From the IMG/VR virus record IMGVR_UViG_3300046001_008198, positions 32,001 through 96,000 of that record: DNA of 64,000 nt; one strand, written 5' to 3'. The notes beneath the pieces were generated by a model. That model was given only the letters and a program-made list of their open reading frames with translations, made no database searches and was not told the origin of the DNA. The stretch is from a virus. The translations under genes were made by a program, and so were the position numbers. Below are positions 40,055-45,293 of this stretch, piece after piece (the first letter of the stretch is position 1; the number at the start of each line of letters is the position of its first letter).

Positions 40055-40195
40055 TTAATGTGGTACTTTACCGCCTTTTAAGGTAAACCAAATGGTGAAC
40101 ATTGGAATGAGGTTGATACAAAATCTTTTATGGTATTGAGAATAATGTACACCTATCCAGAAAGCTCGCCAATTGAATAACATTCCTAATTTCAT
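40055..40195 (-). CDS. 46-aa small protein (not in the ORF track)
   Basis: MKLGMLFNWRAFWIGVHYSQYHKRFCINLIPMFTIWFTLKGGKVPH; ATGA overlap with the upstream gene. Confidence 0.6.
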   Translation of the reverse strand: MKLGMLFNWRAFWIGVHYSQYHKRFCINLIPMFTIWFTLKGGKVPH

Positions 40196-40512
40196 TTGCT
40201 TTTCTTTTTAGATTTTAGGATGAGAAATTCTGTACACTGAATGACTGTCATAGATGGATCTGAATAATCTAATCTACCTTCAATGATTACTTCCATTTGA
40301 GGAACTAGCGTATCATTCATTATTTTAGCCATTTTTAATTTGGCGCATACATTGTGTGTTTGGATATTAGTAATGGTTGAAATCTTATTTTTAGTTTTGA
40401 ATGTTTCAACTGTTTCTAATTCCATAGATAATAAAGGACCTTTTTTAAGGTCTGTGTACATCATGGATTTTACTGTACCTATCAGAGATACTTTGTTTCT
40501 TAATGGCTGCAT
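40192..40512 (-). CDS. short SSB-like OB-fold protein
   Basis: NKVSLIG.V..H.V..A..M...V.IEGRL; no acidic tail. Confidence 0.6.
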   Translation of the reverse strand: MQPLRNKVSLIGTVKSMMYTDLKKGPLLSMELETVETFKTKNKISTITNIQTHNVCAKLKMAKIMNDTLVPQMEVIIEGRLDYSDPSMTVIQCTEFLILKSKKKSK

Positions 40513-42147: not shown

Positions 42148-42432
42148 TTACAAAATTATGATGTCAGTGGCAATGACTTTACCTTTAGCAAGATAACCTT
42201 CTACAGCTAAATCAGATCCGATTCGTAGGCGATTAATAAATTTTAGGTATATGTCTCCTTTGAGTACAACTCTGTGTTGATACTTTTTTGTGATAGGTTT
42301 ACCATTTCCATCCAACTGTAGAGATTTAGTTTCCAGGATAAAGCAAGTGCCTACTTTTTTAATACCTTCTTCGGTGGTTTGTTTAGGCTCAAGCGTTTTG
42401 AGAAGCTTGCCTATTAAGTTTACATGATTCAT
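42148..42432 (-). CDS. short SSB-like OB-fold protein
   Basis: MNHVNLIGKL..HRVV..L..GS.LAVEG.L; no acidic tail. Confidence 0.6.
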   Translation of the reverse strand: MNHVNLIGKLLKTLEPKQTTEEGIKKVGTCFILETKSLQLDGNGKPITKKYQHRVVLKGDIYLKFINRLRIGSDLAVEGYLAKGKVIATDIIIL

Positions 42433-42646: not shown

Positions 42647-42725
42647 GATAGTAAAAGTTAAAGGTTAATAAATTACCCCTCTGCATCTCAGTTGTAGGCT
42701 GTTATACCCTAAGTTAGCACCAATA

Positions 42726-43001
42726 CTATTGAACCAACCTATAAACAAGACGTTCAGCTTCTTTGCCTTTAACGTGCTTATAAATAGTTAATTCAGTTGG
42801 TGTTCCATTGTTATCAGCCATTCCGCTAATTGAAACAATTTCACTAACTTCAATCACATTATTAGGGTCTGTACCTTCATAAACTATAAATGGGAAAGGC
42901 AAAGAACCTGCCTTAAATTCCTTAATTTCATCATCAGTAAAATAAGTACTGGTGCTAACATCGGTTTGGCAAAATTGCCGTTTTGTTTCTTCGTTTGACA
43001 T
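42726..43001 (-). CDS. hypothetical protein in a cassette-like unit; start codon lies inside the attC-like repeat
   Basis: First ~15 codons (..RQFCQTDVS) are the right arm of the inverted repeat. Confidence 0.6.
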   Translation of the reverse strand: MSNEETKRQFCQTDVSTSTYFTDDEIKEFKAGSLPFPFIVYEGTDPNNVIEVSEIVSISGMADNNGTPTELTIYKHVKGKEAERLVYRLVQ

Positions 43002-43078
43002 TTTATCTAAATTTTAAAGTTTGTACTACTAATGAAGTTTTGTGTTCGGCAACTTCGCCAAGCCGAGAAACGTTATCA
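42953..43078 (-). mobile_element. attC-like recombination site (126 bp)
   Basis: TGATAAC..CGGCTTGGCGAAGTTGCCG (loop) CGGCAATTTTGCCAAACCG..GTTAGCA. Confidence 0.55.
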
Positions 43079-43376
43079 TTAACTATTTAACATAGTTCAC
43101 TTACAACTGCTCACCCTTGGGAGCTGATTAACTCATCTAGCTATATGCTACATTAGTTTCGGTTAATCAGGTGGTTTCACATCTTATGTGGCTGGTTTCC
43201 ACTACATCCCGTGCACTAGGAATAAGAAGTCTTTATATCCACGTGAGAATGGTGCATTAATAATTTGACGGCTCCCGTATTTCAGAGAGCCGTTCAATAA
43301 TTGGGTTTGTAGTACTTGCTACAAATATGTCCATCAACGCTAGGTTGGATAAAGCCGAAGCTATTTCATGATTTTT

Positions 43377-43927: not shown

Positions 43928-44344
43928 TTATAAGAGTCCTATCTTTTCAAGGAAATCTTTGTTAGTAAATCGATGTTCAAAGAATTCAATTACATAGACA
44001 TCTTCATCAGTAATAAGATGGTCAATGGCTGTGATATGGTCGCCGTCATTGTATTGGCGAAGAAGATTAAGCATTGCATCAACAAGGTAATCGATGTGTT
44101 CATACGTAATGAATTGTCGAGCACTCTCGATAGCTACTGCCTGAGCAAAATACTTGTTAATATCCATTCTGTGGTAGTCAAAGTCTTTCTCAGAATTATC
44201 AGCGTCAAGGATTATTAGTCGTTTGATAATGTTTGGAAGCTCTGTAGCACTGAGGATGTGTGTGAGGTAGAGATTATTTGGTGTCATTATTTGGTGGATT
44301 AAATGATAGTAAATACCAGTATATTTTTTCATCATGCATTCCAT
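43928..44344 (-). CDS. hypothetical protein (start likely 44287)
   Basis: Motif copy at 44303 lies about 16 nt upstream of ATG 44287. Confidence 0.55.
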   Translation of the reverse strand: MECMMKKYTGIYYHLIHQIMTPNNLYLTHILSATELPNIIKRLIILDADNSEKDFDYHRMDINKYFAQAVAIESARQFITYEHIDYLVDAMLNLLRQYNDGDHITAIDHLITDEDVYVIEFFEHRFTNKDFLEKIGLL

Positions 44345-44627
44345 GTAAGTCGAGAATGCTGAATGCTGTTTGGTGGTAATTGATTATTGGTTCAGATGAT
44401 ATTCCGAATGGAAATCTTTCATTTTTGTAATCGTAATAAGTTCCAACCCAATTTTCATATTTGAAAATATCATGAGTGCCCTGACTATAATCAGGACCTT
44501 GAGTGATAACAAATACATTTAGATCCGGACGATATGTTGATACCCAGATATGTTTTAATGTTTCTGATTTATCTGTAGTAATCAATAACTTCACACCAGG
44601 TTTTGTTTCAAAAAGGATATGTGCCAT
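44274..44627 (-). CDS. tandem paralog family member 3
   Basis: ILFETKPGVKLL...YWYLLS. Confidence 0.65.
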   Translation of the reverse strand: MAHILFETKPGVKLLITTDKSETLKHIWVSTYRPDLNVFVITQGPDYSQGTHDIFKYENWVGTYYDYKNERFPFGISSEPIINYHQTAFSILDLHGMHDEKIYWYLLSFNPPNNDTK

Positions 44628-44630
44628 AAT

Positions 44631-44966
44631 TTATGAGATTAAGTACCAATAGAATATATCTGGATGTACAAAATCATATCCTTTGAGAATTGATTCTAAC
44701 GATTCATGTTTATAATATGTTGATCCTGCTACAGAATTGTAAATAATAAACTGAGTATTGATTCTGTTTGGTGTACCTGTTGTACTAAGAAATGCATCAA
44801 TAACATTAGGTTTTGTTATAGTCCACAGTGTTTCTTCATTTGTATACAACACAGTTAATTTGTCATAATAGAAGAAAGTTGAGAATGCAAGCACTAGATT
44901 AGGACATTTTTCTTGAACAACAAGCAAGCGTACTCCGGATTTAGGTTCTACGATAATTCGTTTCAT
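44631..44966 (-). CDS. tandem paralog family member 2
   Basis: IIVEPKSGVRLL...YWYLIS. Confidence 0.65.
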   Translation of the reverse strand: MKRIIVEPKSGVRLLVVQEKCPNLVLAFSTFFYYDKLTVLYTNEETLWTITKPNVIDAFLSTTGTPNRINTQFIIYNSVAGSTYYKHESLESILKGYDFVHPDIFYWYLIS

Positions 44967-44978
44967 AGGCGCTGGGTG

Positions 44979-45293
44979 TTATGATAGTAAATGCCAATAG
45001 GTCTCACCTTTGGATGTGAACATATAATGATTTAGCATTTCAAGTAGGCATTCACTTACAGTTGCACAATAATCTGATGGTTCACGGATGTTTATGAAGT
45101 TACTGTCCCACGGCAATAAGTTAACACCTTTTACGGTAATGAGGTAATGGAATTCTGGTGGTGCAAAGTAGAGTGTGAAATCTTCAGGGCCTGTAAACAT
45201 TTCAGTAGTGAATACATGAGGGAGCATTTTTGATTTAGTCTTTGTTAGCAACAATCGCACTCCTGGTTGTGGTTCAATTATGAGGTGGTTCAT
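44979..45293 (-). CDS. tandem paralog family member 1
   Basis: LIIEPQPGVRLL...YWHLLS. Confidence 0.65.
   Translation of the reverse strand: MNHLIIEPQPGVRLLLTKTKSKMLPHVFTTEMFTGPEDFTLYFAPPEFHYLITVKGVNLLPWDSNFINIREPSDYCATVSECLLEMLNHYMFTSKGETYWHLLS

Follow-up and report, generated by a model that had tools for sequence, protein, structure and literature searches.

Integrons are the textbook gene-capture device of Proteobacteria, and the sedentary chromosomal ones carry homogeneous attC sites of about 125 nt, as in the Vibrio cholerae repeats. In the integrase VchIntIA, an insert specific to the IntI proteins binds extrahelical bases. Integrons with a co-directional integrase have a layout like that of the chromosomal arrays considered below.

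In Bacteroidetes, IntegronFinder 2.0 recovered almost no integrons, only In0 elements and one complete integron. Among phages, attC clusters without integrase (CALIN) have been reported (Qi et al. 2023, PMC9892861), and one of the phages concerned is P12002L, whose cluster comes with two methyltransferase genes. The sites of P12002L were called by HattCI and treated as ordinary attC, and P12002L_attC1 alone among the sites tested was not recombined by IntI1; matched 14-nt arms, Bacteroidota arrays, a separate recombinase and reversed genes do not form part of that description. In Bacteroidales, the clusters named rAID-1 (Ross et al. 2019, bioRxiv 10.1101/471110) consist of a XerD-like tyrosine recombinase followed by co-directional low-GC genes, with "repetitive intergenic sequences reminiscent of integrons", and are defined by a 5' recombinase of the XerD type with at least 44% identity to BF9343_RS08045. 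Compared by layout alone, rAID-1 matches the chromosomal arrays analyzed here; it differs in that its cargo consists of immunity genes in gut Bacteroidales and in that phage arrays and hairpin-borne start codons were not described. Also, a protein classification that does not deal with sites or cassettes has recognized "integron-like" simple tyrosine recombinases, some of them devoid of the insert (Smyshlyaev et al. 2021, PMC8138268), a subgroup that fits the array recombinases presented below. Our literature search, which cannot prove absence, found no paper on matched 14-nt arms, on phage arrays as a system or on start codons within the site, and the gene-swapping system seems to have been described so far only in fragments.

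The locus described here lies in a stretch of 64,000 nt (hereafter the window) of the 125-kb genome of a lake-water phage. With a probability that we place at roughly 80%, the interval 43071-42713 represents one gene cassette of an integron-like system of gene capture, widespread among Bacteroidota and their phages. Its likeness to classical integrons includes an imperfect-palindrome site with an AAC...GTT R box, an unpaired spacer, an L-box stem and a variable loop, whose structure is kept while the sequence varies; cassettes that bear the complement of their own far end; break points that fit G|TT (AA|C on the other strand); and head-to-tail arrays with a tyrosine recombinase at one end. In contrast to classical integrons, the R box is 14 bp long and not 7, two fixed G.T wobbles replace clear extrahelical bases, the recombinase is devoid of the approximately 40-residue IntI insert and co-directional with the cassette genes, and genes in phages have the opposite orientation with respect to the site, many of them with their start in the hairpin loop. 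Neither attI nor Pc was identified for the array system, in which a terminal motif is a candidate attI-like site.

Architecture of the site in the phage genome

The hairpin spans positions 43076-42955 of the window, on the minus strand (as are all features of the unit given below), and occurs as a single copy in the phage genome. The original prediction had described an imperfect inverted repeat bounded by TAAC and GTTAGCA, which was confirmed by repeat search, by folding and by a covariance model. The upstream flank (43072..43085), ending in ..GATAAC, looks like a distal arm and does not pair with the arm that follows the hairpin; its TAAC (43075-43072) marks the start of family conservation. 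The left junction of the unit, TAA|C-G, is located at 43072/43071, and five contigs, drawn from three metagenome runs, have loose ends at 43075/43076. The junction is followed by a 5' unpaired spacer of 6 nt, GTTTCT (43066..43071), with G as first base in 99% of inter-cassette sites, and by the 19-nt 5' half of the stem (43047..43065), equivalent to the L box and recognized both as an inverted repeat and by folding. According to the sequence and the list of ORFs, the 66-nt loop (42981..43046) is A/T-rich and contains an ATG at 43001-42999. The 3' half of the stem (42962..42980), supported by repeat search, fold and covariation, lies within the coding sequence as codons 8-14, and a 3' spacer of 2 nt, AT (42960..42961), with T as last base in 99% of sites, closes the hairpin. 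The asymmetry of the spacers, 6 versus 2 nt, had been pointed out as non-canonical and is real.

Next to the hairpin stands the proximal arm, GTTAGCACCAGTAC (42946..42959), which codes for the V-S-T-S-T of the leader. The distal arm, GTATTGGTGCTAAC (42713..42726), overlaps the TAG stop codon of the gene. The near-complementarity of the unit ends, also part of the original prediction, extends over both 14-mers (42959-42946 with 42726-42713), which form 13 Watson-Crick pairs and one G.T, the latter between G42949, the fixed wobble partner, and T42723. A second family-invariant G.T is formed in the stem by G43053, in its 5' half, and T42974. In the repeat search, the two structures appeared as inverted repeats with 20-nt arms and 85% identity, one at 42961-42980/43047-43066, which is the hairpin stem (18 of 19 pairs on the minus strand, G.T allowed), and the other at 42708-42727/42945-42964, which brackets ORF 43001..42726. 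The hairpin strand folds with -33.3 kcal/mol (z = -3.3). The right junction falls after C42713, where contigs with the same gene from runs X3 and X5 diverge exactly, giving a mobile unit of 359 nt (42713..43071), as delimited by its break points, that would comprise spacer, hairpin, proximal arm, gene and distal arm.

The AAC and GTT ends of the site correspond to TAAC at 43075-43072 and GTTA at 42959-42956, and the attC consensus RYYYAAC/GTTRRRY is only partly matched (GATAAC, GTTAGCA). No tRNA was detected by a tRNA scan of the window, and a sigma-70 promoter scan, whose range does not include Bacteroidota promoters, gave no hit. Inspection of the hairpin loop by eye revealed no clear instance of TAnnTTTG. 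A hammerhead-like CUGAUGA...GAAA following the proximal arm was dropped, given that the family does not conserve it, and the flank beyond the distal arm scored poorly as an array-terminal (attI-like) site (position-weight score -8.1, rank 927 of 1498).

Upstream of the unit, within a non-coding stretch of about 300 nt (43077-43376), a 31-nt piece at 43101-43131 is common to contigs of three other lake metagenome runs, with divergence on both sides (loose ends at 43101 and 43131). It adjoins a CTGATTAAC/GTTAATCAG hairpin, another hairpin is found at 43259-43302, and Rfam yielded no match; this piece may be another small repeat or regulatory element.

Distribution and conservation of the site family

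A distant search of the phage collection recovered 42944-43090 as the sole matching part of the window, with 73% identity to 13 Muminvirus genomes (Flavobacterium phages). There, the match spans the gap before a DNA methyltransferase gene and the first 19 codons of that gene; the ATG falls in the same alignment column as in the window site, and the differences in the stem are compensatory. A search of IMG/VR and of bacterial genomes with a pattern of two conserved boxes extended the family to at least 119 viral and at least 120 bacterial genome stretches, nearly all from Bacteroidota among the matches listed. Conservation in the 112 distinct viral copies listed sets in sharply at TAACG and stops at GTGTTAG, and the 126-nt element is 80-99% conserved in over 100 phage contigs among these matches. 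The ATG occurs at a fixed position in 65 of 124 listed copies. In 268 distinct inter-cassette sites the spacer measures mostly 110-119 nt, with G as first and T as last base, and is flanked by AAC and GTT, which are invariant, both having been required by the scan.

Alignment of the window site with 40 diverse sites (RNAalifold) yielded an 18-bp stem with compensatory double changes in 16 of the 18 pairs. Two G.T wobbles are fixed, one in the arms and one in the stem, the latter kept as G.U in 40 of the 41 sites. As to the extrahelical bases of an L box, no constant bulge was found; one 1x1 mismatch column is present, and is paired in some sites. Neither the folding energies (-32.8 versus -32.0 kcal/mol) nor the numbers of G.U pairs (791 versus 829) revealed a strand bias of the stem. 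A covariance model built from the same 41 sites matched the window site with 106.6 bits (E = 1.7e-21) on the minus strand and with 21.4 bits on the opposite strand. It also recovered 12 sites in mumin6-1 and, besides attC1, three in Polaribacter phage P12002L, a genome that had been missed by an nhmmer profile of close copies. Thus the site proposed in the original prediction as attC-like belongs to a structurally covarying family, whose members stand in arrays.

Judging by its sequence, P12002L_attC1 (30059-30005, minus strand), located between two methyltransferase genes, is a short member of this family with the architecture CTAAC-G...T-GTTAG. Several short variants of 55-90 nt (the L096:4888 region, L124 30059-30005 and several other loci) have in common a loop around CGTTTTAATGCCG and look like a distinct subfamily that includes this published site.

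Matched ends and cassette arrays

Throughout the family, the hairpin is followed by a 14-mer (GTTAG....G...) that has its pairing partner in another 14-mer (...T....CTAAC), located where the next gene ends. Such a distal partner, pairing at 12 or more of 14 positions and situated 150-2400 nt downstream, on the stop codon or immediately after it, was found for 96 of 122 listed copies; the copies that lack it mostly belong to loci that end too soon. The variable positions of the two arms co-vary from one cassette to another (TGGCAGTAC with GTATTGCCA, GCGTAGTGC with GCATTACGC, TTGCCGTTT with AAATGGCAA, etc.), and position 11 of the proximal arm is always G, opposite T. Mean pairing amounts to 12.7 of 14 positions within one cassette, in a set selected at 12 or more, versus 7.5 of 14 across one hairpin, indicating that the ends match per gene and not per hairpin. 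The cassette with self-complementary ends anticipated from the window is therefore a property of the family.

When arm pairs alone were scanned for, nine consecutive cassettes were recovered on one strand of mumin6-1, from 8109 to 1648, versus 0-1 in shuffled sequence, together with five cassettes in P12002L and one real pair in the window phage. Arrays reach 12 sites in related phages and 8-9 cassettes in bacterial loci of 8 kb. The window itself contains one unit only, and this phage cassette is a one-unit array, an orphan of the integron-like system. The site downstream of the gene had been regarded as truncated, a view that does not hold, given that the cassette itself ends with the distal arm, any hairpin beyond it being part of the next cassette.

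Break points and extent of the mobile unit

Around the site, the genomes of mumin6-1 and filifjonk9-1 share 99.9% identity, and the difference between them is an insertion of about 1.58 kb with three annotated genes; its break points are confined to TAAC|GTT, where a distal arm meets the following hairpin. The borders of exchange were further assessed in 31 pairs of cassettes at least 90% identical and located in different loci. The similarity ended on the right-hand side 0-20 nt past the distal arm in 25 of the 31 pairs (0-3 nt in 15 of them) and never at 21-398 nt; the flanks are common too in the other six. On the left-hand side, 15 of the 31 pairs lost their similarity where the hairpin begins and eight close to the proximal arm, suggesting that a second exchange point, or homologous recombination inside hairpins, also occurs.

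In independent lake metagenomes, contigs with the same 91-aa gene (7 differences in 313 nt) depart from the window sequence exactly at 42713 and run on into other hairpin variants, so that the gene occurs elsewhere with the same boundary. Other lake contigs have hairpin and arm in common with the window and carry different cargo from 42946-42954 onward. The summed contig depth reaches 285-412 over the hairpin, versus 3-8 over the flanks. Taken together, the break points point to a mobile unit made up of hairpin, proximal arm, gene and distal arm (43071-42713). The extent initially predicted was therefore right as to its matched ends and not as to its start after the hairpin, since the mobile unit normally includes the hairpin upstream, with breaks at CTAA|C-G on either side and not at the GTTAG that follows the hairpin. 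The exchange of genes between Bacteroidota phages by way of cassettes, which had been proposed from the window, is borne out by the homologous arrays and by the break points of shared cassettes. Two observations would have contradicted this proposal, namely a lack of homologues in arrays and an occurrence of the ORF elsewhere without the complementary boundaries; neither was made.

When the strand complementary to the gene is considered, the break points take the form G|TTAG, compatible with the G|TT crossover of integrons (resolved here to TAAC|GTT). Neither an empty site nor an excised circle was recovered from lake-metagenome contigs, which are blind to rare excision. For the two neighboring genes, a search of IMG/VR gave no relatives.

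Recombinases associated with the arrays

In agreement with the absence of an integrase from the window already pointed out in the original prediction, no tyrosine recombinase is present in the window or in the whole 125-kb phage genome, and none is annotated in mumin6-1 or P12002L. Arrays adjoined by a tyrosine recombinase do exist, in bacterial genomes as well as in some of the phages. Four loci (L184, L201, L154 and L208), including those of Flavobacterium sp. 9AF and Flavobacterium sp. SM15, have the recombinase gene immediately after the last distal arm; in a Lacibacter chromosome and in L159 and L180, no more than a few kb separate it from the end of the array. Two phage contigs (L011 and L024) encode in the same position a homologue of 294-298 aa, 39% identical to the SM15 protein.

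The best NCBIfam family for the array recombinases is NF040815 (tyrosine recombinase/integron integrase), with 221 bits against a cut-off of 220, and the integron-integrase model TIGR02249 gives 204-212 bits against a cut-off of 265. Their nearest solved structures are XerA and VchIntIA. The array recombinase aligns with residues 14-205 and 246-319 of VchIntIA and has nothing opposite 206-245, which is the IntI-specific insert; this makes the system integron-like and not a canonical integron.

At the array ends (L184, L201, L208 and about 70 others) the junction after the last cassette reads AAC|T, not AAC|G. An array-terminal motif, roughly T-N5-(C/A)TA(T/C)ACGCAAC, lies between the last cassette and the recombinase gene in L184, L201 and L208, a position that makes it a candidate attI-like site.

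Orientation of the cassette genes

Phage and chromosomal cassettes differ in the strand of their genes. In the viral loci listed, the longest ORF lies on the GTT...AAC strand in 331 of 340 cassettes, and the start codon is inside the site in 172 of the 340. In the chromosomal arrays beside a recombinase the ORFs occupy the strand opposite to that of the phage type and are co-directional with the recombinase gene, which is thus flipped in the same way relative to site polarity (L208, L184, L201, L154, L159, L199 and L222, compared with viral loci L005-L123). This suggests that site polarity follows the recombination system and not transcription. On its opposite strand, the window unit reads TTAG..., gene, R'', L'', L', G, the canonical layout of an integron cassette, which implies that phage genes are reversed relative to the site; they run outward from the hairpin. 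Three loci binned as bacterial (L226, L173 and L197) have small cassettes in the phage-type orientation, and could stem from phages or prophages whose DNA was assigned to bacterial assemblies.

The cassette gene and the cargo of related phages

The gene of the window cassette (43001..42726) encodes 91 aa, namely a leader of about 19 aa contributed by hairpin and arm, followed by a conserved core of 73 aa. Thirty-one homologue clusters were found in metagenomes, with the core beginning near residue 20; the protein has no Pfam match and, among these metagenome clusters, no named homologue. An AlphaFold2 model built with 15 homologues reached a mean pLDDT of 52, too poor for a fold search. In the homologues, the approximately 19 N-terminal residues vary with the hairpin variant and always end in VS.S, the translated arm. 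Marine homologues of 73 aa start right at the core, with distal-arm-like sequence still present after the stop codon. The leader thus appears to be a by-product of the site.

The proposal that the site supplies translation initiation is upheld insofar as an ATG lies in the 66-nt loop, and translation would start there, as inferred from the sequence. The hairpin loop would then provide an A/T-rich leader, the ATG and, with the rest of the hairpin, about 14 codons, to which the proximal arm would add about five more. It is unusual for a recombination site to serve as a translation start as well, and the idea is testable, with cultured pairs of Muminvirus and Flavobacterium available.

Elsewhere on the minus strand of the window, three adjacent ORFs at 44274-45293 (117, 111 and 104 aa) have the appearance of tandem paralogues, with ..EP..GV.LL.. 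in common close to their start and ..YW(Y/H)L(L/I)S at their end; cassette arms are absent from their flanks. Two further ORFs, at 42148-42432 (94 aa) and 40192-40512 (106 aa), have similar N-termini (..N/VSLIGK/TV..) and may be paralogues.

The viral cassettes considered have 140 distinct ORFs that reach 60 aa or more; PF01555 was assigned to 34 of these, PF00145 to six, and Dam and PF03602 to one each. DNA methyltransferases hence make up 30% of this set, and the rest mostly lack a Pfam family.

Proposed mechanism and alternative explanations

In the mechanism that we propose, the site would be composed of an R-box-like stem formed by a distal arm (...CTAAC) and a proximal arm (GTTAG...), a 6/2-nt spacer, a long L-box-like stem and a variable loop. 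One DNA strand would fold into this site and a tyrosine recombinase of the Xer/IntI type would cut it at CTAA|C. Hairpin, gene and distal arm would then move as a unit, probably by way of a circle in which the two arms of the cassette are paired. As the phage has no recombinase of its own, the cassette was probably acquired with the enzyme supplied in trans, be it by the host, a co-infecting phage or an ancestor. Against this mechanism speak the missing recombinase and the single copy of the site in the phage genome, the array recombinase devoid of the IntI insert, the flank that does not score as array-terminal, and the failure of IntI1 to recombine P12002L_attC1, a member of the family.

Part of these features could also be read as mRNA structures, in which hairpin and arm pairing form a translation-initiation or processing element (e.g. 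an RNase III-type stem) kept for expression. Such a reading draws on the covariation of both stems with their fixed G.U on the sense strand of the gene, on the ATG in the loop of about half of the copies, on the ORF strand of nearly all phage cassettes and on the strand-specific covariance match. Yet we consider a role restricted to RNA unlikely, mainly on account of the opposite gene orientation in the chromosomal arrays, where the G.T-bearing strand is antisense to the mRNA; also, indel and context break points coincide with the borders of the site, tyrosine recombinases stand at array ends, and Rfam contains nothing relevant for the window site at the gathering threshold or at E <= 5. A role in expression may exist alongside recombination.

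Conserved intergenic stem-loops can shuffle genes by other means, the promoter-early stem-loops of T4-type phages being the model for hairpins that act as regulatory repeats in homologous recombination between co-infecting phages. The strong conservation of the 126-nt element among phage contigs, the lack of a recombinase in most such phages and the left breaks near the proximal arm in 8 of 31 pairs speak for this origin, which however leaves unexplained the matched and co-varying arms of each cassette, the right breaks within 0-20 nt of the distal arm, hairpins of conserved structure and unrelated sequence, and the recombinase at array ends. CTAA|C breaks between hairpins without sequence similarity have also been seen in part, and we hold homologous recombination to be a very improbable explanation of the whole. 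It is harder still to see the unit as a small transposon or miniature inverted-repeat transposable element, moved by a transposase, whose terminal inverted repeats would be the 14-nt arms. Inverted ends do surround a discrete unit with many copies in many genomes, but the arms differ between cassettes and co-vary, when the binding sites of a transposase would be conserved; sequence inspection revealed no target-site duplication at the junctions of the window unit, the arrays are head-to-tail, no transposase was seen in them and 30% of the cargo are methyltransferases, all of which makes a transposon extremely unlikely. As for chance matches in an A/T-rich phage genome, where 22 short inverted repeats were detected, at seed 6, in the 1-kb region that contains the unit, their probability is practically negligible in view of the family-wide conservation and covariation, of the 0-1 matches in shuffled controls (versus nine in the related phage) and of the E-value of the covariance-model match.

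Biological significance

Beyond the assignment of the single unit in the window, we think it reasonably probable that Bacteroidota and their phages share a gene-capture system that we have not found described as such, with a short Xer/IntI-like recombinase devoid of the hallmark domain of integrons, a 14-bp cassette-specific R box and fixed G.T wobbles, and that phages use it with reversed genes, a start codon supplied by the hairpin and a leader of about 19 residues, in order to stock and swap anti-restriction methyltransferases and small genes. The turnover of methyltransferase genes in Muminvirus has been linked to host range (Nilsson et al. 2020, PMC7077304), and the cassette system would offer a concrete mechanism for the rapid turnover of such genes in phages. 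The small cassette genes, including the 73-aa core found here, would represent a pool of candidate counter-defence genes. More generally, the logic of the integron would operate in genomes of Bacteroidota and in phage contigs, hundreds in all, by means of a recombinase devoid of the domain regarded as essential for attC recognition. If this is true, structure-specific single-strand recombination would be older or more flexible than the IntI model implies.
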